From Oscillospiraceae bacterium (GTDB taxonomy: Bacteria; Bacillota; Clostridia; Oscillospirales; Oscillospiraceae): 64,000 bases of DNA. The notes under the pieces are model-generated. The model was not told where the DNA came from, did not search any database, and was given only the letters and a program-made list of their open reading frames with translations. Below are positions 35,954-56,053 of this stretch, one piece after another (within the stretch, counting starts at the first letter, position 1; each line of letters begins with the position of its first letter). The stretch spans positions 18,585 through 82,584 of the forward strand of contig WRAO01000010.1 of assembly GCA_009780175.1 (NCBI GenBank), read 5' to 3'. A program made the translations under genes and the position numbers.

Positions 35954-36030
35954 GGGCCTTTAGCTCAGTTGGTTAGAGCATCCGGCTCATAACCGGACGG
36001 TCCCGGGTTCAAGTCCCCGAAGGCCCACCA
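35954..36030 (+). tRNA. tRNA with CAT anticodon (elongator Met or lysidine-modified Ile2)
   Basis: 77 nt. Acceptor GGGCCTT/AAGGCCC, D-arm GCTCAGTTGGTTAGAGC, anticodon arm TCCGG-CTCATAA-CCGGA, T-loop GGTTCAAGTCC, encoded CCA. There is one C-C mismatch in the T stem. Overall similarity to ileX-type tRNAs makes Ile2 plausible. Confidence 0.85.
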
Positions 36031-36196
36031 AGCTCACTACCGGGGTAATTTCGCCTCGTTGTTCGCGCAAACATGCTCTTGACCTTCGCCCCACCGGAGG
36101 TCAGGGGGTTCCCAAAAGGGGGACTGGTCCCCCTTTTGAATCGCGCGTGAGCAAAGCGAACTTACAGTATTTCCCGCAGGAAATACTCGCGATTCA

Positions 36197-36273
36197 TAGG
36201 GGTATAGCTCAGCTGGTAGAGCAGCGGTCTCCAAAACCGCGTGTCGAGGGTTCGATTCCTTCTGCCCCTGCCA
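36197..36273 (+). tRNA. tRNA-Trp (anticodon CCA)
   Basis: AGGGGTA-TA-GCTC-AGCTGGTA-GAGC-A-GCGGT-CTCCAAA-ACCGC-GGTGTC-GAGGG-TTCGATT-CCTTC-TGCCCCT-G-CCA. Its 3' part is repeated at 48198-48242 and 56035-56050, which marks it as an integration target. Confidence 0.9.
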
Positions 36274-36276
36274 TAG

Positions 36277-36312
36277 AAAACGCTACAACCGTAAGGGTTG
36301 TAGCGTTTTTTC
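36277..36312 (+). terminator. Rho-independent terminator after tRNA-Trp
   Basis: AAAACGCTACAACC-gtaag-GGTTGTAGCGTTTTTT. Confidence 0.8.
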
Positions 36313-36340
36313 GTTTTGGGGTGATTGGGCGAAAAGGGTG

Positions 36341-36364
36341 CCGTGTTCAAGAAATGTTCAAGAA
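36341..36364 (+). repeat. 24-nt direct repeat (left copy); candidate arm-type integrase site of island 1
   Basis: CCGTGTTCAAGAAATGTTCAAGAA is identical to 48049-48072. It contains an internal tandem TGTTCAAGAA x2. Confidence 0.75.
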
Positions 36365-36394
36365 GCCACCACAAACGAAGTTTACCTCCAAGCA

Positions 36395-36422
36395 TTGAAA
36401 AGCTCACATTTTATGATATAAT
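36395..36422 (+). promoter_or_regulatory. Strong sigma-A promoter of the dcm-vsr operon
   Basis: TTGAAA, a 16-nt spacer, then the extended -10 TGaTATAAT. It is followed by AAGGAGG (36504-36510) and ATG 36519. Confidence 0.65.
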
Positions 36423-36518
36423 TGATAAAAATGCAAAACGTCAGATGTCGCTATGCACCTCACCATGTGAAAAATGCGGGGTAAAATTTTGACAATTTCG
36501 GAAAAGGAGGTATCAGTA

Positions 36519-37511
36519 ATGACTGCGAACAAACAAAAATCGTCATATTCTGTAGTTTCATATTTTTGCGGATGTGGCGGTCTGGATTTGGGCTTCCGCG
36601 GCGACTTTAGGTACCACGATGAGGATTACGACCAACTGCCTTTTGACATTAAGGCGGCTTACGACTATGAGCCGCGTTGTATCGAGACATATAACGGTTA
36701 TTTTGGAGAAGGACACGCTTTTGTCAGCGACCTATCAACTGTCGATGTTGCCTCTGTGCCGAAAGCTACGGTGCTCATTGGGGGCTTCCCTTGTCAGGAG
36801 TTCTCTTCCTGCGGCCCCTTGGGCGGCTTGGAGTCCGAGCGAGGCCGACTGTATCAGACACTTATAGCTTATATGAACAAACATCGCCCCACTATTGTGG
36901 TGGGCGAGAATGTCATCAACCTTGAGCGGATGGATAACGGCGCGGTCTTGGAAACCATCAAAACTGACCTTGCGGACGCTGGTTATACGGTGGAGGTATG
37001 GAAGATGTTCGCCCCGGACTACGGGGTGCCGCAGCGCCGCACACGGTTGTTTTTCATTTGCGTCAGAAACGATATCCAAGAACGCTACGGATTCCCAGCA
37101 ATGCCAACGCCTGATTTTACTGGCGAGCACAGGAGTATCGAGTGGGCCATTGGCGATTTACTTGATGTAGCGGATGAGAGCGTTCCAAACCAGAGTCAGT
37201 ATTTCGGGGCGTCGCGCGCTAAGAAGGGAAACGGACAAGGCGACGAGAGCAACAAAAAAGACCTTCCGGCCTATACGATTCGGGCGAACCCGAAGTCCCG
37301 TGTGCAATTTCATTATTCATTGGATAGGCGATTAACCGTTCGCGAGTGCGCGCGAATACAGACTTTTCCGGACGATTTCAAGTTTACTCACGCTAAAACG
37401 GCGAGCGTCTCCCAAATAGGTAATGCGGTGCCACCAATGCTTGCCTACATTGTGGCTAAAGCCATTGAGAACTATTTGAAAGACGTGAAGGAGGTGCAAA
37501 AAGATGTCTAA
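36519..37511 (+). CDS. dcm: DNA (cytosine-5)-methyltransferase
   Basis: ORF 36474..37511. The preferred start is ATG 36519 (AAGGAGG 8 nt upstream). Motif I FCGCGGLDLGF, motif IV GGFPCQEFS, motif VI GENV, motif VIII PQRRTR, motif X GNAVPP. Confidence 0.92.
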   Translation: MTANKQKSSYSVVSYFCGCGGLDLGFRGDFRYHDEDYDQLPFDIKAAYDYEPRCIETYNGYFGEGHAFVSDLSTVDVASVPKATVLIGGFPCQEFSSCGPLGGLESERGRLYQTLIAYMNKHRPTIVVGENVINLERMDNGAVLETIKTDLADAGYTVEVWKMFAPDYGVPQRRTRLFFICVRNDIQERYGFPAMPTPDFTGEHRSIEWAIGDLLDVADESVPNQSQYFGASRAKKGNGQGDESNKKDLPAYTIRANPKSRVQFHYSLDRRLTVRECARIQTFPDDFKFTHAKTASVSQIGNAVPPMLAYIVAKAIENYLKDVKEVQKDV

Positions 37512-39897
37512 CATCACTACATTGGATATCACGCCGACTCCACGAATCCTGCGCACTTTGGGTGAGATACCTTTCGCGACATGGCAATGTGTAGCGGAGT
37601 TGGTTGACAACTCCATTGACGCCTTCCTTTCGGACAAGTCTTCCATTCCAGAGGAACTCGAACGGAAGATTACAGTTAGCTGGGCATCTGATTCTGTCGC
37701 CACCAAAGATCGAGTCATTGAGGTTACAGACAACGCTGGCGGTATGTCCGTTGAACAATTACAAAATGCTGTCCGCGCTGGATATTCAAGTAACGATCCA
37801 GTGGGAAACCTCGGTCTTTTTGGCGTAGGCTTTAACATCTCAACCGCGCGATTGGGAGATGTCACAACCATTTTGTCAACAAGAAGCGGTGACGCTGATT
37901 GGGTAGGTATAAAGATTGACTTCCAAAAACTCATCGACGCGAAACGCTTTGATGCGTCTATCATACGCAAACCAAAAATTGACCCTGAGGAACACGGCAC
38001 CAAAATCACCATCTCGAGTTTAAAACAAGGCATACTATCTGAGCTACCAAACAAAGAAAATGATATTCGGCAGCGACTAGAGGCTGTCTATGCTCCACTC
38101 CTGAATAACCAAAACGCTCCCATCACCATTACGGTAAAGGGAAAGCCACTCCGTCCGCGTAACCATTGTGTTTGGTCGGAGTCGCGCTATATACGCTACA
38201 GTGACCAGAATGTACCTGCACGCATTACCATCGATAGAGACCTCGGTGATGCCTTGTTTGACCTGAGCCGCAATTGCTATCTGACCGCTGATGAGGCTGA
38301 GGATTATTATGCAAAACAGCAGGAAGGACACACGCTCCCGATGTGTATCATTGAACGCAGGAAGCGTTTGACTGGCTGGTTGGGAATCCAACGTTACGCC
38401 GACCCGAACGACTTCGGCATAGACTTCATCCGAAACGGTAGGAAAATTTTGATATCCGATAAGTCCCTTTTCCAGTATGAGAACCCAATAACAGGTCAGA
38501 AAGAACTCCAGTATCCTTTGGAATTGGGTACTACGGTTGGTGGGCGAATTGTCGGGGAGCTACACGTCGACTATCTGCTCCCAACCTATCAGAAGAATGA
38601 CTTTGATCGCTCAGATGTCTCGTGGATACAGACCGTCGACGCAATTTGTGGAGTGGGGCCATTCCTGCCAAAGTCCCGCAAGGCACTCGGCTTTGTTCCT
38701 GAGCAGACAACTTCTCCCCTAGGTCTGCTTGTCAATGCTTATCGTAGAGTCGACAAAGGCACTAAATGCCTATTTGCCCCGAACGATGTGGCTAAGCGTT
38801 ACGCTGCTGAGTTCAGAAAAGGCCAGCGAGACTATCTTGATGATATTCTTTGGTGGAAAGCAGCGCAAGAAGAAGACCAAAAGCAGAACACAGGTGGATC
38901 GAGGGCTACCACTGCGGTAAATACGGGTGACATTCCCTCCGACGATGTCAGTGTTTATATTGCTGGAGCTACTTTTTCACAGGCATCTCCTGCTGTTGAT
39001 GCGCCAGAAGCAGATTCTCAAACTGAAACGACAACTTCGGTGTCTACGTCAGCCGTATCGGAAACGTCTAAAATAGATGAGCTCATCCAACGGTCTACTT
39101 CCGTAAGCCAACTTAGTGGCCGTAACTATAAATTCGGCAACGCTGGCTCGCTGAATGTTCGCGCTTACGAGTTGAATCGGGGCTCCATATACTATCGTGG
39201 CGAGAAGCGGCCTAGCTTCTTCCAGTCTGACGGTATCGACTGTGATTTTGTCTACGATCCATCGCATCCTCTGCTTGCTCAATATCCGATTACCGCGAAG
39301 ATGCTGCTATTGCAATATCTATCTGAGAAGCTAAAGGCGAGAGATAGCCTTCCTGATTTAGTCGCTGTTTACGCCGATTTGATAGAAACCACAATGCAGG
39401 ACGCAAGAATTGACAGACAAGCATTGCAAGACAGGGCAAGTAGTGCTTTTGAGTTGTTGCGCGAAAAACTGACCGTAGCCCTTAAGGATAAAGCTTCTGA
39501 AGCTGTAAGCTGCATACATGAATCAGCTGGCGAGGTTGAGGAAACAATTACAAACCTTATCCAATCCGCGAACACGACATTGTTAAAGAATTTTCAAGCC
39601 AATATCGCCGCTGGATTTGATTCCATTGAATTCGTGCCGCCTAAGACTCTATATAGGCTAATTGAACGGTTCCCAGAGGATGTTTTTGACGAGCGCGTGT
39701 TCCAAACGCCCTATATGACGATTACTCTGCAGGACGCAATGGCTACACAACGAGCCCGCGACGAGTCTAGAGATCGTGCGTTATCGTTTGTGAAGGACGC
39801 TCTCCGGGTCATTTCTGGCTATAACCAACGTGTGCAAAAGAATGAACTCGCGCGCGCGTCACTTAGCGTGGACTTCCTGTTAAAGGAGTTGAGTTAA
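37504..39897 (+). CDS. GHKL-superfamily (HATPase_c_3, MORC/MutL-like) ATPase with a long uncharacterised C-terminal region
   Basis: 797 aa, with a start overlapping the dcm stop by 8 nt. Bergerat-fold motifs are the N-box ELVDNSIDA, G1 DNAGGM and G2 GLFGVGFN. A Ser/Thr/acidic linker lies at about aa 470-520, followed by about 270 aa with no family I can name. Confidence 0.8.
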   Translation: MSNITTLDITPTPRILRTLGEIPFATWQCVAELVDNSIDAFLSDKSSIPEELERKITVSWASDSVATKDRVIEVTDNAGGMSVEQLQNAVRAGYSSNDPVGNLGLFGVGFNISTARLGDVTTILSTRSGDADWVGIKIDFQKLIDAKRFDASIIRKPKIDPEEHGTKITISSLKQGILSELPNKENDIRQRLEAVYAPLLNNQNAPITITVKGKPLRPRNHCVWSESRYIRYSDQNVPARITIDRDLGDALFDLSRNCYLTADEAEDYYAKQQEGHTLPMCIIERRKRLTGWLGIQRYADPNDFGIDFIRNGRKILISDKSLFQYENPITGQKELQYPLELGTTVGGRIVGELHVDYLLPTYQKNDFDRSDVSWIQTVDAICGVGPFLPKSRKALGFVPEQTTSPLGLLVNAYRRVDKGTKCLFAPNDVAKRYAAEFRKGQRDYLDDILWWKAAQEEDQKQNTGGSRATTAVNTGDIPSDDVSVYIAGATFSQASPAVDAPEADSQTETTTSVSTSAVSETSKIDELIQRSTSVSQLSGRNYKFGNAGSLNVRAYELNRGSIYYRGEKRPSFFQSDGIDCDFVYDPSHPLLAQYPITAKMLLLQYLSEKLKARDSLPDLVAVYADLIETTMQDARIDRQALQDRASSAFELLREKLTVALKDKASEAVSCIHESAGEVEETITNLIQSANTTLLKNFQANIAAGFDSIEFVPPKTLYRLIERFPEDVFDERVFQTPYMTITLQDAMATQRARDESRDRALSFVKDALRVISGYNQRVQKNELARASLSVDFLLKELS

Positions 39898-41555
39898 TGA
39901 ATTTTTACACCGATGACATTTCAAACGGGTACAACTGGAAAGGCCTTGAGCGTGCTGTCGCGCGTTTGATGGGGCATCTGGGATGGAACGACACTACCGT
40001 CATCGGTGGAACTGGAGATAAAGGCTGTGACATACTTGCCACGAGGGCGGAAACTCAACAGATAAAGTCGTGGGTCGTCCAAGCAAAAGCCGTCTCCGGA
40101 AGCCGCTATATCGGGCCACAAGCTCTTAAGGAAGCGATTGACGCCTTGTCTTTCTATGACGCTAACATTGCGGCTGTTGCCACGAATGGTGAGTTTACCA
40201 AAACCGCACGCCAGCGACAAGAACAGCTTGAGAAGAACGGCTATACTCTAAAGCTCTGGAACGGAACGTTTATTCAAGCGCTTATCGACCAGATATCAGA
40301 CGACCACGCTGGATTCAGAAAACTTCGCGAGTACCAAGACCAAATAGTCAAGAAGGTCATCACGGCCTATGAGAGAGGCGATAAGCGAGCGTTTTATATT
40401 GTCGCTACAGGGCTTGGTAAGACCGTCATTGCCGCAACAATCGCACGCGCTTTATGGGAGAAAGGATGCCGCAAGATTCTTGTTCTTTGTCACGCCACCG
40501 ACTTGGCTCTTCAGTTGGAGCAAGGGTTTTGGCCTCAAATAAAAAAGGAGGTGCCTACCTCGGTGTTCTTTGATGGTTTACCTCCACGAGACACGGAGGG
40601 CATTTCTTTTGGGCTTTATCAGAGTCTATATGGTTATCTTCCGGGGATAGAGCCTGATCAATTTGATGCGGTAATTGTCGACGAGGCGCATCACGCCTTG
40701 GCTCATGGGTTCAGAACCTGCCTTGAACATTTAAAACCTAAGTTTCTCATCGGGATGACCGCAACACCGTGGAGAGGTGACGGGCAGAGCCTGACCACTG
40801 TCTTTGGTGAGGCTTTGGCGAAGGTTTCCCTTGTTGATGGTATGGCAATGGGCTATCTGTCCAAGGTTGATTATCGTATTTTCTGCGACAATGTTGATTG
40901 GGACGACATGGAATATATGAGCAGACAAAACCTCTCGATTCGAGACCTTAATAAGCGCCTTTTCTTGCCACAACGCGACGAAGCCGTTATCACAGAAATC
41001 CAGCGAGTGGTGGCGGATATCCCGAATCCGAGGATAGCCATATTCTCGCCTTCCATTGAACATAGCAACCGTTTTGCTAATATGCTATCCGCCGCAGGAA
41101 TTCCTTGCGCGGCTCTATCTCGCGTTGATAAGGCCGAGCGACGGCGCAGATTGTTGGCTTTCGCGGCGGGTACCTATCATGCGGTAAGTGCCGTTGACGT
41201 TATGAATGAAGGTATTGACATCCCAGACGTAAATATCCTCGTCTTTCTGAGAGCCACACACTCAAGGAGGATTTTCGTCCAACAGCTTGGACGTGGTTTA
41301 CGCCTGTCTGAGGGCAAAGAAAAGGTCATTGTGTTAGACTTTGTTTCCGACATCCGCAGAATGGCGGATATGGTTGAAATGAACAGAGAGGGCAAAGTTA
41401 AAGGTGCTGAAAACGAGGTTGTTTATCTGCAGGAGGGCTTTGTGTCTTTCTCGGACGCGAGAATGGAAAGTTTTGTAAATATGTGGCTTGAGGATGTCGC
41501 GGACTTAGGCGGTTCAGACGATGAAACAAAACTGACATATCCGGAGGGATTTTAA
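39897..41555 (+). CDS. Mrr-like restriction endonuclease domain fused to an SF2 DEAH helicase
   Basis: 552 aa, with the ATG sharing 1 nt with the upstream TAA. The N-terminus GDKGCDILA....VVQAKA has a PD-(D/E)xK / Mrr_cat-like pattern. Helicase motif I is ATGLGKT, II is VDEAHH, III is MTATPWR and VI is QQLGRGLR. Confidence 0.85.
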   Translation: MNFYTDDISNGYNWKGLERAVARLMGHLGWNDTTVIGGTGDKGCDILATRAETQQIKSWVVQAKAVSGSRYIGPQALKEAIDALSFYDANIAAVATNGEFTKTARQRQEQLEKNGYTLKLWNGTFIQALIDQISDDHAGFRKLREYQDQIVKKVITAYERGDKRAFYIVATGLGKTVIAATIARALWEKGCRKILVLCHATDLALQLEQGFWPQIKKEVPTSVFFDGLPPRDTEGISFGLYQSLYGYLPGIEPDQFDAVIVDEAHHALAHGFRTCLEHLKPKFLIGMTATPWRGDGQSLTTVFGEALAKVSLVDGMAMGYLSKVDYRIFCDNVDWDDMEYMSRQNLSIRDLNKRLFLPQRDEAVITEIQRVVADIPNPRIAIFSPSIEHSNRFANMLSAAGIPCAALSRVDKAERRRRLLAFAAGTYHAVSAVDVMNEGIDIPDVNILVFLRATHSRRIFVQQLGRGLRLSEGKEKVIVLDFVSDIRRMADMVEMNREGKVKGAENEVVYLQEGFVSFSDARMESFVNMWLEDVADLGGSDDETKLTYPEGF

Positions 41556-41557
41556 CG

Positions 41558-42136
41558 ATGGCAAAAGTAACATCTCAACAGAACAAGAAAATTCGGGAGG
41601 CTACCTTCAAAAAAGCTGATAGCTTTGGGTACTCATCCAGTGGGCGTATCGATAGCGGCCGCTTTATGGACGACCTCGTGGAAGATCCGGAAATTGGCGG
41701 CGTCCTTAAACAGTACATGGACAAGGAGCGTGTCCGCACTTATATCAAGGATTCTGTACTTAACGCCTATGCCAAAAAGAAAATCAAGGACGCATTTGAC
41801 GCTGTTGATCCGACCGAGACTATTGAAAAAGTCTATGGCGTGAAGGCGTTGAAGATTCAGACCGGCACTAGAAAAAGTAACAAGGTGACAGTTTCGCGCG
41901 CTGCTGATGGTCATATTTTCGTGGTTAGCGGCGGTACAGTTCTGTATTGGGAGAACGCTTTGCGGAAAGCCTTAGAACTTGTTGCCAAGCAACCAGGACT
42001 CATCATCGAGGGGCGCACTCCTTCAATCTGTTTGACTCTCGTCTCGAAAACCAACTCCCTGACTATCGCGGATACGAACCACATAACCACTGCGCTCAAA
42101 GCGGTGGGGGTGCAAGCGGTCTTTCTCGATACCTAA
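41558..42136 (+). CDS. Hypothetical protein, operon-embedded, no recognisable domain
   Basis: 192 aa, starting 2 nt after the helicase stop. Coding-like composition. No motif I can assign. Confidence 0.6.
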   Translation: MAKVTSQQNKKIREATFKKADSFGYSSSGRIDSGRFMDDLVEDPEIGGVLKQYMDKERVRTYIKDSVLNAYAKKKIKDAFDAVDPTETIEKVYGVKALKIQTGTRKSNKVTVSRAADGHIFVVSGGTVLYWENALRKALELVAKQPGLIIEGRTPSICLTLVSKTNSLTIADTNHITTALKAVGVQAVFLDT

Positions 42137-42154
42137 TGTTATGGAGGTGGATAT

Positions 42155-42607
42155 ATGACGAGAACACCTGGAATAACCCACAAGATAATGTCTGCCGTGA
42201 AGTCAAAGAACACCCAGCCAGAGCTCGCGTTGCGCCATGCGCTCTGGGCGCGGGGCTTGCGTTACAGGATAAATGTAAAAACACTTCCCGGAAAGCCTGA
42301 CATTGTTTTTACGAGAACGAAGTTAGCCGTATTTTGTGATGGCGATTTTTGGCATGGTCATAACTGGACTATTCGAGGGCTACCATCATTTGAGGCCGAA
42401 CTGGAACAGTATTCGCAGTTTTGGCGAGACAAGATTCTTGGAAATGTGCAGCGGGATATCAAGAACACAGAACTACTTGAGGCAGCAGGGTGGACGGTTT
42501 TGAGAATTTGGGAAAGCGATATAAAAACGGACATAGTTCGTTGTGCTGATATGGTAGAAGAACAATATTGGATTAAAGTACGAGGCAACGCTGACGGGTC
42601 TGCATGA
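42155..42607 (+). CDS. vsr: Very-short-patch repair endonuclease
   Basis: 150 aa. S...MS.VKSKNT.PE..LR..L...G.RYR, GKPDIVF and AVFCDGDFWHGH are Vsr signatures. Confidence 0.92.
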   Translation: MTRTPGITHKIMSAVKSKNTQPELALRHALWARGLRYRINVKTLPGKPDIVFTRTKLAVFCDGDFWHGHNWTIRGLPSFEAELEQYSQFWRDKILGNVQRDIKNTELLEAAGWTVLRIWESDIKTDIVRCADMVEEQYWIKVRGNADGSA

Positions 42608-42808
42608 AAGCTTAGTAAAGGAATGTACATTTGGAAAAATAATTACACTAACAAGAAAACTGTAGCTTATTCCTCCTTCGCGACCTTCGCAAGCAAGGCA
42701 TGGTGATATCACCATGCAAAAACGGTGCTTGTTGGGGAGCAGCCCACCCCCACTAAATTGTCCGCTGCGCGCCCAATTTTTAAGCCGGCCTTCGCCGTCT
42801 GCTAGAAC

Positions 42809-42860
42809 AAAAAGAGCGCTGCTGGGAAGAAATGCCTCTCCTCCCAGCGGCGCTCTTTTT
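42809..42860. terminator. Bidirectional terminator between the vsr operon and mobC
   Basis: AAAAGAGCGCtGCTGGGA...TCCCAGCgGCGCTCTTTTT. Confidence 0.75.
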
Positions 42861-42865
42861 GCATT

Positions 42866-43204
42866 TTAGATCTTCGCCAGCTTCTGTAAAATCATCCTCG
42901 TTTGCCCACAGAGCAACTCATAGTCTGTTTGGAGTTTCTGAATATCTTCTGCGTACATATTGCCATCACTGTTGACCCGACGGGCAATCTGATTGAGGTT
43001 ATTCGTGGCGTTGGAGAGTAGCCGCGTCATCTTCCTCACATCGGAGAAGTCGAGGCGGAGCACATAGCCGTCCAGCACCATCCTGCGATAGTAGGCTTCT
43101 TTATTGCGGATATTCGCGACCGACATTTTTTCTTTGATGAGGGCAAGTTCGGCTTCATTCACACGGAAAATTTGTTGTTTGCTGCGTTTCAGATTTTTTG
43201 TCAA
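42866..43204 (-). CDS. mobC: MobC-family (ribbon-helix-helix) mobilization accessory protein
   Basis: 112 aa. R.....FRVNEAELALIKEK and LSNATNNLNQIARRVN match the MobC/relaxosome accessory pattern. No relaxase gene follows it. Confidence 0.75.
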   Translation of the reverse strand: MTKNLKRSKQQIFRVNEAELALIKEKMSVANIRNKEAYYRRMVLDGYVLRLDFSDVRKMTRLLSNATNNLNQIARRVNSDGNMYAEDIQKLQTDYELLCGQTRMILQKLAKI

Positions 43205-43749
43205 ACGTCAATCACCTCATAGTCGGCATGGATTACCTCGCTCCTAAGTCCTTTGCGCCGCCTGTAATCTTCCATCAGTTCGGCGATGCGTGCGTCCATA
43301 TAGTTTCTGTAGGCCGGGGTTTCATACTTGCCGCCATGTCGGACGGTGGGGAGCACATCATGGGTGACCCAGTGGCGGAAGGCCGTCAGCTTTTCGATTC
43401 GCTCTTGCGTGGCTTGGGACACGCCGCGCTTGTTCGCTTTCTGCGGGTGCATCCCGAGCAGCAGGGCGTACAGACCAGATTCGTTTACGAGAGTTGTTTT
43501 TTGTATGCCCCCTTTTGTCTCGAGGTCTAAGATCGCCTTGTCCGCTTCATTTACTCGCAAGAGACTTCGGCTGTGGTTCTTATCTCCAAAGAAGCGGCAG
43601 ACATCTTTGCCGACAAACCACGGCTTGCCATCCGCCTGGACTACTCGGACATCTTTGAAGTCGGGATCATCAAATAGGATAAGTTCTTGTTTGATCAAAT
43701 GGGCAAGACTCCTTTCCAGGGTGGGGGGTACGCTATGCATACCCCCCAC
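43201..43749 (-). CDS. Bro-N domain protein (prophage antirepressor-like)
   Basis: 182 aa. F......VRVVQADGKPWFVGKDVCRFFG and LVNESGLYALLL are typical of the Bro-N domain. The exact start is uncertain. Confidence 0.7.
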   Translation of the reverse strand: MGGMHSVPPTLERSLAHLIKQELILFDDPDFKDVRVVQADGKPWFVGKDVCRFFGDKNHSRSLLRVNEADKAILDLETKGGIQKTTLVNESGLYALLLGMHPQKANKRGVSQATQERIEKLTAFRHWVTHDVLPTVRHGGKYETPAYRNYMDARIAELMEDYRRRKGLRSEVIHADYEVIDV

Positions 43750-43760
43750 TTTGCGTTTGC

Positions 43761-44009
43761 CTATCCAGCGAGACGGCGGATGGGACTGAGCGGCACTTCT
43801 TCTTTTTTCTTCTGCGGCGGCGGAGTAGGTTGGGCGAGGTGTCGGATGAGTACCTGTTCGCAGATGAGATACTTTTTCCCCGCCTTAACGTGCGGCAGTT
43901 CTCCCTGGATACACATTTCTCGGATTCGGTACTTAGTCAGCCCTGGTATACGGTCGGCAGCTTCGTTGATGGTGAGCATTCGGATGTTGCTGGTGATGAG
44001 TTCTAACAT
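43761..44009 (-). CDS. Excisionase-family helix-turn-helix DNA-binding protein
   Basis: ORF 43761..44060. The preferred start is ATG 44009 (AAGGGGGA 5 nt upstream). LTINEAADRIPGLTKYRIREMCIQGELPHVKAGKKYLI is an excisionase/MerR-like HTH_17 pattern. Confidence 0.7.
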   Translation of the reverse strand: MLELITSNIRMLTINEAADRIPGLTKYRIREMCIQGELPHVKAGKKYLICEQVLIRHLAQPTPPPQKKKEEVPLSPIRRLAG

Positions 44010-44047
44010 TGCAGTCCCCCTTGGTTTTTTATTCTTCTTGCTTCTGC

Positions 44048-44076
44048 TTGACTTCCGCAATTAAACTTGCTATAAT
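44048..44076 (+). promoter_or_regulatory. Consensus sigma-A promoter for xre-int
   Basis: TTGACT, a 17-nt spacer, then TATAAT, divergent from the excisionase-like gene. Confidence 0.6.
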
Positions 44077-44168
44077 CGAAATATATCATATGCCACTTGC
44101 GAACGCAAGGGATGTGCAGCTAAATTTTCGAAACGCAACAAACAACAACGCGAAGGGCGGACAACTAT

Positions 44169-44897
44169 ATGGATGACAAAGATTCTTACTTCCATCCCTT
44201 TCCCAGACGACTGCGATTACTATTTGACGAGACAAGAGTGAGCCAGCAAGAGGTGGCAGACTATGTAGGCGTATCTCGACAGGCAGTATCTCAATGGAAA
44301 GACGGCAAGACGATTCCAGACTGTTACAATTTCAAAAGAGTGGCGGAGTTTTTCAAAGTGCCGCTCGAGTATCTATACGGCGAGACAGAGAGCAAAGTAA
44401 AAGAAAATCAGGTACTGGTTGACAGCTTAGGGCTTTCCGATGGAGCGATTGCCAAGCTGAAGGAATGGGCAACCCAAACGGGGGCGAGCATAACGCCTAT
44501 CGCGTTTTTATCAAAGCTGATCAATACCGATGAATTCGATCGTTTTCTCCAACAGGCGCGGCGGGCAAGCAATGAATATTTTGAAATTCAATGCGAGTTG
44601 CTGGATGAAGATCGCATTCCGCCCGGAGACCCAAACGACCCCGCGCAAGTTGCGGTACGACGCGCACTGAACGCCCGCGCCACCGCAATCGGATACCGCA
44701 TCATCCCAGCAGATGACCTGAGCAGCTTCCACCGCCAACAGGCGATGGAAGCTATGGGTGCGGCCATCAAAGCAGCGTACGAACGATATTTTACAGAGAA
44801 TCAGGAACAACTCGTGGAACAGTGGCACGAAAATTACGGTAGAGAATATTTGGAGCAAGCCGCCCTAGCCGAGCGGCTGGGAATAAGCCTACACTAG
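44169..44897 (+). CDS. XRE-family HTH regulator with an extended C-terminal domain
   Basis: 242 aa. LRLLFDETRVSQQEVADYVGVSRQAVSQWKDGKTIPD is a classic HTH_3. The C-terminal 170 aa are uncharacterised. Confidence 0.8.
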   Translation: MDDKDSYFHPFPRRLRLLFDETRVSQQEVADYVGVSRQAVSQWKDGKTIPDCYNFKRVAEFFKVPLEYLYGETESKVKENQVLVDSLGLSDGAIAKLKEWATQTGASITPIAFLSKLINTDEFDRFLQQARRASNEYFEIQCELLDEDRIPPGDPNDPAQVAVRRALNARATAIGYRIIPADDLSSFHRQQAMEAMGAAIKAAYERYFTENQEQLVEQWHENYGREYLEQAALAERLGISLH

Positions 44898-44910
44898 GAG
44901 AGGTTGGATT

Positions 44911-46320
44911 ATGGCAAACATCATCAAGCGAACAAGCAAGAGGGGTGAAGTCTCATATCTGATTCGTGTGTTTGTAGACCAGCGGACGAATGGCAAACAG
45001 ACGGTGAAGTCCATGACCTACAAGCCAGCGCCCGAACTCACAGAGCGGCAGGTGGAGAAAGAGCTCAATCAAATCGCCGTGCAGTTTGAGGATGAGATCA
45101 AGAACGGCTTGGTTGCCTATGATGGGACAATCAAGTTTGAGGACTATGCGGCGCGATGGATGGAAACTGCCCAAATTGCACCCAAGACACGAGAGCGGTA
45201 TGTGCAGCTCTTAAAGCGCGTCAATGAAGCCTTCGGACATATCAAACTCAAGAATTTACAGGCGCGGCACTTGGAAGCGTTCTATGCCAATCTGCGAGAA
45301 GACGGCATCAAAGAGCAGGGGTGTTTTGCGACACCTGCCGGACTGGACAAGATGATGGATAAGCGGAAGATTTCCAGAACCGCTCTCAGCAAAACAGCGG
45401 GAATTGCTTACGCTACGATCAGCGGGGTGCGGAATGGAAAGCAAGTGACGATTGCCACGGCGGAGAAAATTGCCGCCGCCCTCGATGTGCCGGTGCAGAA
45501 GATTTTCAAGATCAACAAAGCCATAACCGGCCTGTCTGACCGAACGGTGCTGCATCACCACAGAGTCATCGCCTCGATCTTGGCAAAAGCGAAGAAGGAA
45601 CAGATCATCCCCTTCAATGTAGCATCGGAGCACGCAAATGCGCCGAAGGTGAAGCGGCAGGAAGCCCGATATTTGAGCGATACCGCCGCACAGGAGATGG
45701 TAGCCCTCCTGCTGCAAGAGCCGGACATTCGCCGAAAAACCGCCATCCTGCTCTGCCTGTACAGCGGTATCCGGCGCGGCGAGTTCGGCGGTCTGCAATG
45801 GAAAGATGTTGATAGGGAGAACAAAATCATCCACATCCTCCGCGCTACCCAGTGGCAACAGGGAAAAGGGATAGTCGAAGTGCCAACGAAGAATGACCAC
45901 TCTAAGCGCGTCATCCGCCTGCCGGATTTGATCTTCGACTTGCTGGCGGAATATCGGAAATATTGGTTGTCTCAAAAGCTCAAGCTCGGAAACAAGTGGG
46001 AGGGCGATGATTGGATTTTCATCCAAGAAAATGGCAAGCCCATTGACCACAATACGCTCAACGGCTGGATTCGGAAGTTCATCGCCGAGCACGATTTGGA
46101 GCACTTCACGCCCCACAGTCTCCGCCACACCTTCTGCTCCCTACAGATCGCCGCCGGGGTGAACATTCGGACGATACAGGCGAGGACAGGGCATTCGAGG
46201 GCGTCTACGCTGACGGACACCTACTCCCATGCGTTCAAGACAGCGGATGAGCTGGCGAGTGAAGCCTTGGATGATATTTTGACTCCGAAGCTGGGCGGGG
46301 TGCGGAAGTTGAGTGGGTAA
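44911..46320 (+). CDS. int: Tyrosine-type site-specific integrase with an internal XRE-like HTH insertion
   Basis: 469 aa. An N-terminal arm-binding-like domain, a core-binding domain and a catalytic domain (R at GIRRGE, HSLRHTF, GHSRASTLTDTYSH). The extra segment KISRTALSKTAGIAYATISGVRNGKQVTIATAEKIAAALDV lies at nt ~45346-45496. Confidence 0.88.
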   Translation: MANIIKRTSKRGEVSYLIRVFVDQRTNGKQTVKSMTYKPAPELTERQVEKELNQIAVQFEDEIKNGLVAYDGTIKFEDYAARWMETAQIAPKTRERYVQLLKRVNEAFGHIKLKNLQARHLEAFYANLREDGIKEQGCFATPAGLDKMMDKRKISRTALSKTAGIAYATISGVRNGKQVTIATAEKIAAALDVPVQKIFKINKAITGLSDRTVLHHHRVIASILAKAKKEQIIPFNVASEHANAPKVKRQEARYLSDTAAQEMVALLLQEPDIRRKTAILLCLYSGIRRGEFGGLQWKDVDRENKIIHILRATQWQQGKGIVEVPTKNDHSKRVIRLPDLIFDLLAEYRKYWLSQKLKLGNKWEGDDWIFIQENGKPIDHNTLNGWIRKFIAEHDLEHFTPHSLRHTFCSLQIAAGVNIRTIQARTGHSRASTLTDTYSHAFKTADELASEALDDILTPKLGGVRKLSG

Positions 46321-46325
46321 AAGCA

Positions 46326-46356
46326 CAAAGGGGCTACGCATACGGTAGCCCCTTTG
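46326..46356 (+). terminator. Hairpin terminator after int
   Basis: CAAAGGGGCTAC-gcatacg-GTAGCCCCTTTG. It is nearly the same hairpin as 47887-47917. Confidence 0.7.
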
Positions 46357-46380
46357 CGATGAACGGTGCAGATCAGCTGA

Positions 46381-46421
46381 TTGACTTTTTTGTTCGTATG
46401 TTTTATAATAAATACGAACAA
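46381..46421 (+). promoter_or_regulatory. abiE promoter with an overlapping inverted-repeat operator
   Basis: TTGACT, a 17-nt spacer, then TATAAT (46404-46409). The inverted repeat TTGTTCGTAT (46390-46399) / ATACGAACAA (46412-46421) brackets the -10. Confidence 0.6.
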
Positions 46422-46454
46422 AAAGGACATTATAGGCAAAGTGGAGGTGTCGGG

Positions 46455-47048
46455 ATGGACAACGCTGAAAAAGTCTTAGCACTCATGAAGCAAAATAATG
46501 GCTACCTCTCCTCAAAAGAAGCCAAGCAAAATGATATTGAGAACAAAGTCCTGCAACGTATGGCAGAGTGCGGGATTATTGAGCGTGTAGCACATGGACT
46601 ATATGCCGAGGCAGGTGTTTTCTCCGACTCTTTCTTTGTGGCACAACACCGCATGCCGAAAGGTATTTTCTCACACGAGACAGCTTTGTTTTTGCATGAC
46701 CTAAGTGACCGCGATCCACTTCGGCTAATGATGACGATTCCCGCTGGTTGGAATTCTAAGATTTTGACGGATGATATGATGCTTTTTTTCTACAACCGTC
46801 CAAAACGATTGACACTCGGGGCTTGCGAGATCAAAACACCATTCGGGATGCAAGTGAGGGCTTATGATGTTGAGCGAACGCTTTGCGACTGCCTAAAGCA
46901 TATTGACAAATTGGATCGCGACTTGGTTCTCACTGCGCTGAAGCGATACTTGAAAAGTGAGCAGCGTGACAATGCAAAGCTATTGGAATATGCGACCGCT
47001 CTCAAAATTCGTGATGAGGTCTATAGATACTTGGAGGTGCTGACATGA
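46455..47048 (+). CDS. abiEi: Type IV toxin-antitoxin system AbiEi-family antitoxin/transcriptional regulator
   Basis: ORF 46359..47048. The preferred start is ATG 46455 (GGAGGTG 5 nt upstream). It has an N-terminal winged HTH (GYLSSKEAKQNDI....LQRMAECGIIERVAHGLY). A 4-nt overlap couples it to the downstream nucleotidyltransferase. Confidence 0.8.
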   Translation: MDNAEKVLALMKQNNGYLSSKEAKQNDIENKVLQRMAECGIIERVAHGLYAEAGVFSDSFFVAQHRMPKGIFSHETALFLHDLSDRDPLRLMMTIPAGWNSKILTDDMMLFFYNRPKRLTLGACEIKTPFGMQVRAYDVERTLCDCLKHIDKLDRDLVLTALKRYLKSEQRDNAKLLEYATALKIRDEVYRYLEVLT

Positions 47049-47881
47049 GATTCACAAGCGCAACACAGTTAAAAGATTGGATCAAGAATAAGTCTAAGCA
47101 AACCGGAACGCCTTCCAACGCACTTTTGTATACCTACATGATGGAGCGCTTGCTTGAGCGTGTGTCCGTCTCGGCATACCGTGAAAATTTTATCCTCAAA
47201 GGCGGCTTTCTGATTGCGGCTATGGTGGGAATTGACCGCCGGAGCACGATGGACATGGACGCAACAGCGAAGGGGCTATCGGTCAGCCGTGAGACACTTA
47301 AAGAAATCATCGATGAAATTATTGCGATTGATGTTGAGGATGGTGTTACATTTGAGGTTGAGAACATCCAAAACATCCGAGAGGTTAGCGAGTACGATGA
47401 CTTTCGCATTTCACTCAAGGCATCCTTTCACACGATTTTTGTTAGGATGAAACTGGATATTACGACAGGCGACACGATTATTCCCGGGGAGATTGAGTAT
47501 TCCTATAAGCTGATGTTTGAGGATCGGACGATTCCGGTCATGGCGTACAACCTTTATACGATTCTGGCAGAGAAGATTGAGACGATTCTTTCTCGGAATG
47601 TGACTAATACCCGTGGGCGTGACTTTTATGATGCTTATATGCTATTGTCCGAAAACCGTGATGCCTTGTCTCGAACAGAGTTGCTCCATGCGCTTCGGGT
47701 CAAAGCGGAAGAGCGGGGCAGTGCTCACCACATAGCGCAATACGAAAAGCATTTGCAAGATATCAGCGCTAGCCCAGAAGTTGCGAAGATTTGGACAGCG
47801 TATACCAAGAGCTATGCTTATGCAAAGGGAATCGAGCTGGCAGATATTCTCCCGCTGATTTATTGGGTGTTCGAAGACTAA
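47045..47881 (+). CDS. abiEii: AbiEii/AbiGii-family nucleotidyltransferase toxin
   Basis: 278 aa. FILKGGFLI, RSTMDMD (NTase acidic motif) and RGRDFYD are typical of DUF1814/AbiEii. Confidence 0.82.
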   Translation: MRFTSATQLKDWIKNKSKQTGTPSNALLYTYMMERLLERVSVSAYRENFILKGGFLIAAMVGIDRRSTMDMDATAKGLSVSRETLKEIIDEIIAIDVEDGVTFEVENIQNIREVSEYDDFRISLKASFHTIFVRMKLDITTGDTIIPGEIEYSYKLMFEDRTIPVMAYNLYTILAEKIETILSRNVTNTRGRDFYDAYMLLSENRDALSRTELLHALRVKAEERGSAHHIAQYEKHLQDISASPEVAKIWTAYTKSYAYAKGIELADILPLIYWVFED

Positions 47882-47886
47882 AAGCG

Positions 47887-47917
47887 AAGGGGATACGCAT
47901 ACCGTATCCCCTTTGTT
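47887..47917 (+). terminator. Hairpin terminator after abiEii
   Basis: AAGGGGATACG-catac-CGTATCCCCTT followed by TGTTT. Confidence 0.7.
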
Positions 47918-48048
47918 TGGCCCTCGTACGAGAATTCAAGTTTTGACATTTTCGGAAGTGGCTGATGCGAAAAGCAGTATATGCGCTCATTATGCATAAG
48001 CGGCATCCGCATAACTATCCACCCTTTATCCACGTCCCAAGACCCCAT

Positions 48049-48072
48049 CCGTGTTCAAGAAATGTTCAAGAA
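48049..48072 (+). repeat. 24-nt direct repeat (right copy); candidate arm-type integrase site of island 1
   Basis: Identical to 36341-36364. An inverted partial copy (CTTGAACAT) lies at about 48083. Confidence 0.75.
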
Positions 48073-48197
48073 CCTCTTCAAAAATCGCCAAACTTGAACA
48101 TAAATCACAAGAAGTTACAAAAATTGAAACTCAAAAAATTCAGTAATACCAACAGTTACAGCAAATCACCAGAGGTTGCCAAAAGCAAATTTGAGCA

Positions 48198-48242
48198 CTC
48201 CAAAACCGCGTGCCGAGGGTTCGAATCCTTCTGCCCCTGCCA
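48198..48242 (+). repeat. Displaced copy of the tRNA-Trp 3' part (junction between island 1 and island 2)
   Basis: CTCCAAAACCGCGTGCCGAGGGTTCGAATCCTTCTGCCCCTGCCA compared with tRNA nt 36228-36273 shows 2 substitutions plus a 1-nt indel. It has no 5' half, so it is not a functional tRNA. Confidence 0.85.
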
Positions 48243-48295
48243 TCATCGAAAAAATCCTTGAGAAATCAAGGGTTTTTTCATTTCCAAAACCTGCC

Positions 48296-48316
48296 GTGTA
48301 CGAATTATGTACGAAT
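48296..48316 (+). repeat. Arm-type repeats (left end of element 2)
   Basis: GTGTACGAAT-ta-TGTACGAAT. The same decamer recurs three times at 55891-55937. Confidence 0.7.
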
Positions 48317-48397
48317 GATTTTAGCCGACCTTGCGTTGATTCCCCTCCAATACGCAAAAAATGACACCTACAAATCAATGTAGATGTCATCTTTTTC

Positions 48398-49585
48398 TTA
48401 CATGATTGAATCTAAAATTTCAACAGCACGTTCTTCTTCTCGAGGATATAAATGACTATATGTATTTAATGTTTCCTTTATGTTTGAATGTCCTAATCTT
48501 CTTGCGACCTCTTGAATAATGACTCTTTCGTTTGCTAACACGCTAACGTGCGAATGCCTGAACTCGTGAATCTTGATTTTATCTAATCCTGCTAACTCTG
48601 CAAACTGCTTATTTCTGCTTTGAATTGTGCCATCTCGTAAACTGCGACCATCTACACCACTACAAATAAAATCTTCTTCGCTGAATGTATGTAATCTCTG
48701 CTTGCGCTTTTTGTGTGCGTCTAAAATGCAAATCAACGCTTTAGGTAATTGAAGTGTTCGTTCTGATGATTCTGTTTTTGGTTTTGATTCTACATCTCCA
48801 CCTTTTAACTTTTGCATGATACTACGTTCCACATTCAAATACTCGCCATCAATATCTGACCACCTCAACCCATGACATTCACCTTTTCGCAATCCTGTTA
48901 AAAACAAAATACTGAAAAATACATAATACTCCCATTCACCTAAATGCTTATGCTTGATCTCGTGTTCTTCTGCGTGTTCTTTTGCTACGCTAATAAACTT
49001 CTTAAATTCCTCTGCTGTGTAAAATTTTGCTTTTGTTTTTCGATGATTTACGTCTTTGAATGTTCCTAATGTTATCAAATGATTTTTCTCAATGTATTCC
49101 ATTTTGACCGCATAATTCAACATCGCCCGAAACATACCATATGCGTGTTGCTTTGACTTCAATGACAACTTATTTTTACCCTTCATAGATGTTTTGCCCT
49201 GCATATATGTTTTCCAATCTTGAAGCATTTTCAATGTGATTTTGTCAATATATACACCTGCAAACATCTCTTTAATATGTAACCGATAATCACGACGATT
49301 TGTGTCTAATGTTGATTCTCTTGCTGAACCCTTTTTTGTCTCCATGTATTCATCATATAACTGCTGTACTGTCATCTTCCCTTGAACGTGTTCGCCCCTT
49401 TGAATCTGTTGCTCCATGTATCGCTCAACTGTCTTTGATTCTTCTGATCCGTATACTATTTGCGACAACTTTTTATGTTCGCCTGTGCTTTCACACGTGA
49501 AACTGACAAAAACCCTGTATTTTTGCAATCCGTCCTTATTTTTAACTAACTTACCGTTTTTATTTCTAACTTCATAACGTGGCAT
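48398..49585 (-). CDS. int: Tyrosine-type site-specific integrase
   Basis: 395 aa. LTGLRKGE (catalytic R), HEFRHSH and LGHSNIKETLNTYSHLY motifs. Confidence 0.9.
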   Translation of the reverse strand: MPRYEVRNKNGKLVKNKDGLQKYRVFVSFTCESTGEHKKLSQIVYGSEESKTVERYMEQQIQRGEHVQGKMTVQQLYDEYMETKKGSARESTLDTNRRDYRLHIKEMFAGVYIDKITLKMLQDWKTYMQGKTSMKGKNKLSLKSKQHAYGMFRAMLNYAVKMEYIEKNHLITLGTFKDVNHRKTKAKFYTAEEFKKFISVAKEHAEEHEIKHKHLGEWEYYVFFSILFLTGLRKGECHGLRWSDIDGEYLNVERSIMQKLKGGDVESKPKTESSERTLQLPKALICILDAHKKRKQRLHTFSEEDFICSGVDGRSLRDGTIQSRNKQFAELAGLDKIKIHEFRHSHVSVLANERVIIQEVARRLGHSNIKETLNTYSHLYPREEERAVEILDSIM

Positions 49586-49718
49586 ATCTTGTGTTATCCT
49601 TTCCGAAAATGCGGATATATTGTGCTTTTCGTAGATTGCATTGTAACATGAAACTTGAAAAAATGCAACGCTTTAATCAAATAAAGTAAATATATCCGCT
49701 TTTTCTAAATTTTATTTT

Positions 49719-50009
49719 TTATGACGTTAAACCTAACTGCTGCAATTTCATCAATCGTTTTTCTAAATCGCTAATATCTAACCCAAATACCTGATATGCG
49801 ATTTCTGTGTTTACTGTGTTTGCCCCGAATGAAAAAATTTCTTTTTGAAACATTTCATCCCTTACATATTTTTTAATCTTTGCCACTGTAGTGTGTGAAA
49901 TATCCCCGAAAAGTTCAGTAATTTGTTTATTTCCCAATTCAGGATATTGATAATAAATACGTATCGCATTTTCGATTGAAGAGATCTGTGGAATATTTAT
50001 TTTTCTCAA
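49719..50009 (-). CDS. Small HTH protein (possible excisionase/regulator)
   Basis: 96 aa. GNKQITELFGDISHTTVAKIKKYV looks like a helix-turn-helix. The call rests on its position next to int and is not family-assigned. Confidence 0.5.
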   Translation of the reverse strand: MRKINIPQISSIENAIRIYYQYPELGNKQITELFGDISHTTVAKIKKYVRDEMFQKEIFSFGANTVNTEIAYQVFGLDISDLEKRLMKLQQLGLTS

Positions 50010-50065
50010 AAACCATGCCTACTCCTTTCTACATACTCGATCCGCCCGAAACCGAATCTAAATAT

Positions 50066-50158
50066 ATTATCCCAACCAGTATTTGTGAACGCCGACATAA
50101 AAAATAATGATGAACTGCGACTGCAACCCACCATTATTATTACTGAATGACTTCTTGT
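50066..50158. repeat. 93-bp intergenic repeat, copy A (includes a minus-strand terminator)
   Basis: Near-identical to 51566-51658, exactly 1500 bp away. It contains AATAATGATGA...CACCATTATT, which on the minus strand is followed by a T-tract. Confidence 0.85.
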
Positions 50159-50171
50159 GTCTGTGTTGACC

Positions 50172-51227: not shown

Positions 51228-51565
51228 AGTTCCTTTTTCCTTTGTTTTTATTATTATTTTTCCTCCAACCTCTGTTTTGTTGTTTTGTTTGGACACAAGC
51301 TGTCATTCACAATATTCACTTGTCAAGGTTCAATCGTTTCCATGAAGCAAACATGAAATTTAGTCGCCGCAGCGATCTTACTTATAATATCGTTTTTGAT
51401 TTTGCAATCCTGCTGACTTGTTTGCAAAACAACTGATATTGCTTATGGTTTGGCTTGACACATAACACAATATGTCGTTTGCAGTGCTAAAAAACTCCAT
51501 ATTGCGTTGCGTCTTTGCTAAACGCACGACGCAACGCTTTTGCTTTGAAAACTGCTTACATTCTT

Positions 51566-51658: not shown

Positions 51659-51771
51659 GACGTGTGTCACGTTCTACGACCGCCAGAATCGCTCTCAACC
51701 CAAAACATACAATCACATACATAATCAACTGGATGCGCTAGAACTGCAAAACTCGTTGTCTTGTGATACCA

Positions 51772-56050: not shown

Positions 56051-56053
56051 GGA

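Follow-up and report, generated by a model that had tools for sequence, protein, structure and literature searches.

MORC ATPases are silencers of transposons and viruses in plants and animals, with links to DNA methylation, and in 2008 a role in restriction-modification systems was predicted for their bacterial ancestors. In that computational survey, Iyer, Abhiman and Aravind (Biol Direct 3:8; PMC2292703) described a type 1 class of MORC gene neighbourhoods, the first of their classes, in which the ATPase is accompanied by a Rad25-like superfamily 2 (SF2) helicase fused to a restriction-fold nuclease; cytosine methylases and Vsr were frequent nearby, and a role in DNA looping was proposed. 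Here we analyse a five-gene operon in the metagenome-assembled genome of an Oscillospiraceae bacterium (assembly GCA_009780175.1, contig WRAO01000010.1, positions 18,585 to 82,584 of the forward strand; this stretch of 64,000 nucleotides (nt) is called the window, and coordinates refer to it). The operon occupies positions 36395 to 42607 and encodes a C5 DNA methyltransferase (Dcm), a GHKL ATPase, a fusion of an Mrr-like nuclease to an SF2 helicase, a 192-amino-acid (aa) protein named after its open reading frame (ORF), ORF192, and Vsr. Judged by sequence it belongs to the type 1 class, and the reference to the 2008 prediction in the initial annotation of this DNA was apt: a MORC protein, with a GHKL domain, an S5-like region and the motif GhXhhpXXRhl, lies beside a Rad25-like helicase that carries an N-terminal nuclease, methylase and Vsr are nearby, and the distribution is sporadic and laterally mobile, actinobacteria included. 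The 2008 description differs in that it contains no small ORF192-family gene, which we find in 66 of 68 loci, and gives neither a recognition site nor further mechanism (PMC2292703). We propose that the locus is probably a MORC-type, ATP-dependent restriction-modification system of two modules, carried on an integrative element. The architecture itself has been known since 2008; new here are ORF192 as a universal third subunit, a methylase/Vsr module that can be swapped, and the abundance of the cassette in Akkermansia.

The operon is real and compact, and all five genes lie on the forward strand. The methyltransferase ORF extends over 36474-37511 in its longest form (345 aa), with a likelier start at the ATG at 36519, located 8 nt past AAGGAGG, giving a protein of 330 aa (36519-37511) that equals the NCBI-annotated length. 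The MORC/GHKL ATPase (37504-39897, 797 aa), the nuclease-helicase fusion (39897-41555, 552 aa), ORF192 (41558-42136, 192 aa) and the very-short-patch (T:G mismatch) repair endonuclease Vsr (42155-42607, 150 aa) follow. From dcm to vsr, the first two junctions are overlaps of 8 and 1 nt and the last two are gaps of 2 and 18 nt. A sigma-70-type promoter precedes the genes at 36395-36422 on the same strand (TTGAAA-16 nt-TATAAT, with a TG-extended -10); it agrees with the consensus at 11 of 12 positions and is the top-scoring site within 36000-43300. About 200 nt past the vsr stop codon, at 42802-42869, there is an intrinsic terminator that a simple terminator scan overlooked and that folding of 42795-42875 revealed as a GC-rich 26-bp hairpin (dG -42 kcal/mol, z = -7.2, equalled by none of 200 shuffles). 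An A-run and a U-run flank the hairpin on opposite sides, and termination is therefore possible in both directions. An Rfam search returned two tRNAs only. The five-gene arrangement is far beyond chance, and the identical gene order recurs across distant phyla. The five proteins are named only generically at NCBI (MCL2568794 to MCL2568798). Much of what the initial annotation had read from the letters held up: the ORF coordinates reproduce exactly its five same-strand genes and their junction lengths, the strong promoter and the bidirectional terminator were recovered by scanning and folding, its domain calls are backed by Pfam, PADLOC and NCBIfam, and the motif strings it quoted all occur in the translations.

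On sequence evidence the 797-aa ATPase is a true prokaryotic MORC and not a paraMORC family, because MORC3 and MORC4 are its nearest solved relatives and the MORC-defining motif of the S5 domain is invariant, in line with the MORC-type ATPase first suggested for this gene. From the N-terminus it comprises a GHKL domain (approximately aa 1-215, HATPase_c_3 at 7e-11 in Pfam) and an S5-like region (approximately aa 280-460), after which a variable linker (aa 486-520) leads to the C-terminal module (aa 521-797). Residue invariance was surveyed in 58-78 homologues per protein, at 33-100% identity. In the 77 homologues of the ATPase the residues E32/N36, D76-x-x-G80, the G-box G104-G109 and G165-T166 are invariant, so that the four nucleotide-binding motifs are intact. 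When the single sequence was searched against the PDB, human MORC3 and MORC4 were the only matches below E = 0.01, and a family profile built from 36 homologues at 31-82% identity retrieved MORC3 at 1.4e-10, MORC4 at 2e-7, SMCHD1 at 0.017 and Hsp90 at 0.019. The profile match contains a second aligned stretch, in which the invariant segment GGRIVGE-HVDYLLPTYQKNDFD is paired with the S5 segment of MORC3 that includes PTHNKQDFD; K364 in the S5-like region is invariant across homologues. The motif GhXhhpXXRhl, defined by Iyer, Abhiman and Aravind in 2008 (PMC2292703), is found here as G305-I-D-F-I-R-N-G-R313-K-I, agreeing at 10 of 11 positions with K314 occupying a hydrophobic one, and G305, D307, R310, N311, G312 and R313 are invariant. 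The Pfam family Morc6_S5 matches at E = 0.038, which is under its family cutoff. At the level of sequence, these alignments suggest an S5 fold in the ATPase. The AlphaFold2 model of the full-length protein was poor, with a predicted local distance difference test (pLDDT) of 58 and values below 50 at residues 287-434, because the alignment held only sequences at least 73% identical. A Foldseek search with this model gave only generic matches to the N-domains of Hsp90, TRAP1 and SMCHD1 and none for the C-terminal module, a conserved region of about 280 aa for which Pfam has no family and a profile search of PDB sequences returned noise only.

Eukaryotic MORC3, MORC4 and SMCHD1 are thus the nearest solved relatives of the cassette ATPase by sequence (E = 1.4e-10 for MORC3 in the profile search), sharing with it the GHKL motifs and the S5 lysine stretch. 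They differ from it in that the cassette MORC has no CW zinc-finger, coiled-coil or SMC-hinge and carries the unrelated 280-aa C-terminal module instead, and in that it has a nuclease-helicase and a methylase, not chromatin readers, as its partners. MutL offers a second comparison. ATPases of the MutL type, with GHKL and S5 domains, are regarded as ATP-gated matchmakers or clamps that act together with a restriction-fold nuclease and a helicase, reading a methylation mark. The MutL/MutH/UvrD/Vsr repair machinery and the cassette have in common a GHKL ATPase, which in the cassette carries an S5-like region, a restriction-fold nuclease and an SF1/SF2 helicase, and Vsr is encoded in the cassette operon itself. 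Unlike MutL, the cassette ATPase is a MORC by sequence, in which DNA_mis_repair and MutL_C were not found, and it is mobile, linked to a methylase and not associated with MutS.

Two published gene sets are similar in content to the cassette. Bellieny-Rabelo et al. 2021 (PMC8011034) described a HEF_HK/Response_reg_2 paraMORC cassette, also from Akkermansia, which contains a C5 methylase, a HATPase_c_3 protein, a small protein of unknown function and Vsr in that order, whereas its core contains no helicase-nuclease fusion. Identity with this cassette was rejected, as the families PF19191 of its ATPase and PF19192 of its small protein were unmatched, even at E up to 10, by ORF192 and by the middle and C-terminal parts of the MORC. 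The Hma system (Payne et al. 2021, PMC8565338), which had been mentioned at the outset, is alike only in superficial gene content, namely a helicase, an m5C methyltransferase and an ATPase. We discard a relationship to Hma: HmaC is a DUF499, BREX-related ATPase (PMC12839542), the cassette ATPase is a GHKL protein, and no model of the PADLOC library matches the MORC protein or ORF192.

The methylase, the MORC, the Mrr-helicase and Vsr all appear to be under selection to remain active, because their catalytic residues are invariant in the homologues surveyed. The methylase matches PF00145 DNA_methylase at 3e-59, TIGR00675 at 6e-55 and PADLOC MTase_II at 4e-79, and its motifs I (FxGxGG), IV (PCQ), VI (ENV), VIII (QxRxR) and X (GNAV) do not vary among 78 homologues. 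Its catalytic core is like those of M.HaeIII and M.HhaI; these PDB relatives cover the catalytic core only and yielded no recognition sequence. Nor did the literature yield a 5-methylcytosine motif for the Akkermansia orthologue, and a paper on Caulobacter ScmA/VsrA, considered as a source of the recognition site, was set aside as it concerns a solitary methylase and not a MORC cassette. Vsr matches PF03852 at 7e-27 and TIGR00632 at 2e-35, with D49 and H67 invariant. The helicase-nuclease is composed of an Mrr-type PD-(D/E)xK domain (aa 13-129), a Rad25/XPB-like SF2 helicase or translocase (aa 142-490) and a short C-terminal tail, with Pfam matches to Mrr_cat (4e-17), ResIII (1e-29) and Helicase_C (1e-12). 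Among its 72 homologues D41, D45, Q62-x-K64, GKT at 174-176, DEAH at 262-265 and motif VI are invariant. The nearest solved structures are SauUSI (7clg), RadD and XPB/Rad25, and the Type ISP enzymes LlaGI and LlaBIII are among its sequence matches in the PDB.

The resemblance of this protein to methyl-directed enzymes raises the thought that the triad is a Type IV-like, modification-dependent nuclease that merely lies beside an unrelated methylase/Vsr pair: Mrr_cat, the PADLOC model mREase_IV (8e-41, the best match for the helicase) and the nearest structure, SauUSI, all belong to such enzymes. We regard this as barely credible, and an assignment to a SauUSI-like Type IV system was rejected. 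The PADLOC match is confined to the helicase core (positions 236-578 of the 945 in the model), no SRA-like or other 5-methylcytosine-reader domain was found, and 67 of the 68 loci link a C5 methylase to the triad despite a change in methylase lineage, an association that would be self-destructive for a nuclease directed at 5-methylcytosine.

Type ISP enzymes (LlaGI, LlaBIII) and Type III enzymes (EcoP15I) likewise combine an SF2 motor with a PD-(D/E)xK nuclease, and in Type ISP the Mrr-like nuclease is N-terminal, as in the cassette. Both types cleave at a distance, following ATP-driven travel along the DNA. Their methylases, in contrast, are N6-adenine enzymes that are fused to the motor or held in a Mod-Res complex and provide target recognition, and neither type has a GHKL/MORC subunit or an ORF192, whereas the cassette methylase is a separate C5 enzyme whose position is interchangeable. 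The cassette is accordingly neither a Type III system, as its methylase is C5 (PF00145) and not an N6-adenine or N4-cytosine Mod subunit, its nuclease is N-terminal, unlike the C-terminal one of Res, and PADLOC REase_III matches at 1.9e-5 in the helicase C-terminal domain only, nor a single-polypeptide Type ISP enzyme, as the 552-aa nuclease-motor has no methylase or recognition domain and the methylase is encoded by a separate gene.

A pattern scan of one genome per species showed that at least 490 genomes, from more than ten phyla, encode a relative, and 79 loci were kept. Linkage was counted in 68 loci with sufficient flanking DNA, 37 of a close clade and 31 of a distant clade, the counts for ORF192 including a clade-specific profile. 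The helicase-nuclease gene lies directly downstream of the MORC gene in 67 of the 68 loci (37/37 close, 30/31 distant), an ORF192-family gene is next in line in 66 (37/37 and 29/31), and a C5 methylase is present in 67 (37/37 and 30/31). Vsr is found in 55 loci (26/37 close, 29/31 distant) and adjoins the methylase in 32, rarely in the close clade (4/37) and nearly always in the distant one (28/31). The neighbourhood conservation that had been proposed as a check is therefore borne out for the helicase, ORF192 and the methylase and, less completely, for Vsr. The fixed unit, seen in 66 loci, is the triad of MORC, helicase-nuclease and ORF192. Close-clade loci share an orthologous methylase, which 35 of the 37 carry immediately upstream of MORC. 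Methylase and Vsr behave together as a module that can be swapped, because in the distant clade, which is mostly actinobacterial, a methylase of another C5 lineage is paired with Vsr and stands before, after or opposite an unchanged triad; a Ruegeria plasmid and a conjugative Rhodococcus plasmid show the same distant-clade pattern. Vsr is common but dispensable. The initial annotation had singled out a hard-wired Vsr as unusual; in fact it is missing in 11 of 37 close-clade loci, it goes with the methylase in the distant clade, and it was already listed by Iyer et al. Oscillospiraceae, Akkermansia (Verrucomicrobiota; hundreds of contigs), Anaerospora, a betaproteobacterium and Bacteroidota have copies that are approximately 81% identical, and such identity between phyla indicates recent cross-phylum transfer. 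Carriers include a tRNA-integrated element in the present case and plasmids elsewhere, and a phage collection contained no MORC relatives. The locus studied here is an ordinary member of a widespread family, and the core of what had been annotated, a methylation-linked system of MORC type, gains support from the MORC membership of the ATPase, the neighbourhood described by Iyer et al. and the co-occurrence across phyla.

The presence of Vsr in 55 of the 68 loci is relevant to another explanation, in which the cassette is not a defence system but a self-contained methylation-and-repair module, the MORC acting as MutL and the helicase as UvrD to aid the repair of T:G mismatches initiated by Vsr. 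MutL of E. coli stimulates Vsr. The parallel with MutL, UvrD and Vsr was also stressed by Iyer et al. (PMC2292703). Yet in 13 of the 68 loci (11 of them among the 37 of the close clade) methylase and triad are retained with no Vsr within the flanks, the Mrr motif D-QxK is invariant although that repair pathway has no known need for it, and the cassette, a passenger of mobile elements, has AbiE, NACHT and HipA-type genes as neighbours and crosses phyla like a defence system. We consider a repair module quite improbable and favour the restriction-modification system.

Individual loci show further variations. On the Ruegeria plasmid NZ_CP102414.1 (L085) a GIY-YIG nuclease is encoded between methylase and MORC, and a PIN-like protein after the gene in the ORF192 position (4139-4912 and 9541-10620). 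Further defence or toxin genes surround the cassette in Anaerospora and Akkermansia. In Anaerospora (L004) these encode PemK, an SMC-like AAA ATPase and a NACHT/SNaCT14 protein, and the cassette adjoins mutS, mutL and hfq; it has no Vsr, and a gap of 447 nt lies 3' of the ORF192 homologue. In Akkermansia (L001-L003) HipA_C, HNH, DUF932 and PDDEXK_1 genes are near the cassette. Several metagenome-derived loci contain split genes, for example the MORC being present as two ORFs in L005, L029 and L068 and the helicase in L050, which could reflect decay or assembly error.

ORF192 had been viewed as an extra and unusual part of the operon. It is instead a universal third subunit of the restriction module, because an ORF192-family gene adjoins the helicase in 66 of 68 loci. 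The lack of recognisable motifs noted earlier was confirmed, as the protein has no match in Pfam, PADLOC, NCBIfam or PHROG, and nothing significant was found in a viral structure library. At 50% identity the family falls into 264 clusters among 1.84 billion representatives; almost without exception these are standalone proteins of 185-195 aa. ORF192 is the fastest-evolving gene of the cassette, with 44-60% identity to its Akkermansia counterparts as compared to 83-92% for the other triad proteins and the methylase and 73% for Vsr. Only G47, K64 and D65 are invariant in 67 homologues, all three in a helix of the N-terminal domain, and the signature DPEIGG...R-x-(Y/W)-I-K-D is kept into Actinomycetota. 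Its AlphaFold2 model (pLDDT 89) has a helical domain at the N-terminus, followed by a C-terminal domain of alpha-beta-beta-beta-alpha-beta topology. The Foldseek matches are weak, the best being EcoO109I (E = 1e-3, probability 0.90), followed by EndoMS/NucS (probability 0.87-0.93), Shedu, FAAP24 and EME1; taken with the topology of the model they suggest a restriction-endonuclease core fold, whose strands carry no conserved acidic residue. Alignment of the ORF192 profile to those of Mrr and Vsr with hhalign was negative, but as the control, Mrr against Vsr, also failed (3.9% probability), this comparison has no power.

With a type II enzyme, EcoO109I, as the best structural match and other nuclease folds next, it could be argued that the operon is a classical type II pair with accessories, in which ORF192 would cut specific sequences as the endonuclease partner of the methylase and the MORC and helicase-nuclease would be separate or auxiliary; a small, fast-evolving and unannotated protein is also what a typical type II endonuclease looks like. 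The conservation pattern speaks otherwise, the three invariant residues being in a helix of the N-terminal domain and the strands being devoid of conserved acidic residues. Moreover, the gene is always 3' of the helicase gene and stays there when the methylase moves, and ORF192 drops to 44-60% identity where the target-recognition region of the methylase keeps 83%. We find a type II pair very improbable. An exhaustive HMMER search with the ORF192 profile gave a fusion with an S24 peptidase as the sole informative one. In this single case (L084, 1468-2559, P0403) an ORF192-like domain (aa 8-194) is joined to a LexA/CI-type Peptidase_S24 domain (aa 233-358), occupying the slot that is usual for the DNA-binding domain of a LexA-type S24 protein, and the fusion gene is directly 3' of a ResIII/Helicase_C gene on a 2.5-kb metagenomic contig. 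The fusion hints at a dimeric, DNA-binding role for ORF192. We suggest, with low confidence, that ORF192 may serve the restriction module without catalysis of its own, as an adaptor or a DNA-binding subunit.

Based on these data we propose how the two modules of a MORC-type restriction-modification system could work. In the modification module, the monomer-type C5 methyltransferase would mark a specific site in host DNA, and Vsr would repair the T:G mismatches that arise from deamination of 5-methylcytosine, thereby limiting the mutational cost. The restriction module would be the invariant triad of the MORC, the Mrr-nuclease/SF2-motor and ORF192. An unmethylated site on incoming DNA would be read by a candidate part of the triad, in the first place the C-terminal module of the MORC, with ORF192 or the helicase tail as alternatives. 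Binding of ATP would then dimerise the GHKL heads of the MORC into a DNA clamp, by analogy with MutL and eukaryotic MORCs, and the clamp would recruit or license the SF2 motor, which would use ATP to translocate or loop double-stranded DNA. The N-terminal Mrr-type nuclease is predicted to cut at some distance from that site, in the manner of Type III and Type ISP systems, while ORF192, with its nuclease-like yet apparently non-catalytic fold, may serve as a structural or DNA-binding adaptor. What the sequences show is the gene content, the intact catalytic motifs, the MORC membership, the linkage and the mobility; restriction, protection by methylation and all dynamic steps are inferred.

The choice of candidate readers comes from a comparison of the two clades. 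Within the close clade the target-recognition region of the methylase is conserved as strongly as the catalytic core, and this clade probably shares one recognition site. Where the target-recognition region has been replaced (17-29% identity), the MORC C-terminal module falls to 19-25%, the helicase tail to 21-34% and the C-terminal half of ORF192 to 9-18%, whereas across the same replacement the ATPase cores keep 38-45% identity. The three diverging regions are nominated as candidate DNA readers because they fall to noise where the target-recognition region of the methylase changes.

Target recognition could instead be left to the methylase, in a manner similar to Type III systems, such that the C5 methyltransferase is the target-recognition subunit and an unspecific MORC, helicase-nuclease and ORF192 dock on the DNA-bound methylase. 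Several observations fit: dcm is directly upstream of MORC in 35 of 37 close-clade loci, the 8-nt overlap suggests translational coupling, Pfam and PDB profile searches identified no DNA-reading domain in the triad, and exchange of the methylase would retarget the system without a lethal mismatch, which agrees with the modular exchange observed. In the distant clade, however, the methylase is often downstream, separate or on the opposite strand and paired with Vsr, which is atypical for a stoichiometric subunit, and the enzyme is compact and HaeIII/HhaI-like with no extra docking domain. We hold this arrangement to be unlikely, and prefer a restriction module that itself reads the unmethylated site.

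Several points weigh against the restriction-modification system as we propose it. The same searches of Pfam and PDB profiles that bear on the docking of the methylase found no recognisable DNA sequence-reading domain in the restriction module, and the correlation between candidate readers and target-recognition region comes from two clades only and concerns regions that are the fastest-evolving anyway. The full-length MORC model is poor (pLDDT 58) and leaves out the S5 region, so that it does not show the clamp architecture, and the nuclease-like fold of ORF192 leans on weak Foldseek matches (best E = 1e-3, template-modelling score approximately 0.3). With one promoter for five genes, a naive host might be cut before it is methylated. 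In addition, the searchable literature, which did not cover subscription journals, yielded no experimental work on prokaryotic MORC systems.

A further step, which we offer tentatively and with less than even confidence, is that the triad represents a mechanistically distinct class of ATP-dependent restriction, in which the MORC clamp, instead of a methylase or specificity subunit, senses unmethylated DNA and licenses a translocating nuclease and ORF192 founds a new adaptor or DNA-binding family. If true, such a class would give the role of eukaryotic MORCs in methylation-linked genome defence a direct precedent in prokaryotes. The family is an apparently unused entry to the long-open question of bacterial MORC function and a compact model that can be cloned, with five very well conserved genes under one promoter, and it is present in culturable Akkermansia, in Streptomyces and on a conjugative Rhodococcus plasmid. 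It is common in Akkermansia muciniphila, where it may hinder genetic manipulation. Two of the five cassette proteins are invisible to current defence-system finders.

The operon is carried by an element integrated at a tRNA-Trp gene (36198-36273). The 3' 46 nt of the tRNA form the left attachment-site repeat (36229-36274), which is repeated with 96% identity as the right attachment site at 48198-48243, both on the forward strand. A third, shorter copy of the tRNA-Trp 3' end occurs at 56035-56058, and the three copies indicate two integrative elements in tandem at tRNA-Trp. The first element (approximately 36275-48243, about 12 kb) has the MORC cassette and AbiE as its cargo, AbiEii being encoded at 47045-47881; the tRNA-Trp island and the AbiE context that had been described are correct. 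It further encodes NikA/MobC-like, Bro-N, HTH_17 and HTH_3 proteins and a tyrosine integrase, and its GC content is 0.46-0.53 compared to 0.52-0.60 in the host flanks. A 229-aa ORF (46359-47048) overlaps the start of AbiEii by 4 nt, the position expected of the AbiEi antitoxin; it has no Pfam match at E <= 0.001. In the tyrosine integrase (44911-46320) a Cro/C1-type helix-turn-helix (HTH_26/HTH_3, aa 145-202) lies between the SAM-like N-domain and the catalytic domain. An exact 24-nt direct repeat, CCGTGTTCAAGAAATGTTCAAGAA, is located just within both ends of the first element, at 36341-36364 and 48049-48072, and the two copies may be candidate arm sites of the integrase.

The second element (approximately 48244-56050) has a low GC content of 0.33-0.41. 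On the reverse strand it encodes a tyrosine integrase (48398-49585) and, at 50172-51296, a Rep-like protein in which Viral_Rep and RNA_helicase domains are recognised. It also contains a direct repeat of 95 nt (at 50065 and 51565) and four iteron-like repeats of 33 nt (at 50135, 51635, 52219 and 54234). Elsewhere in the window there are two very long ORFs, one of 1930 aa on the forward strand (1203-6995) and one of 1329 aa on the reverse strand (24329-28318).

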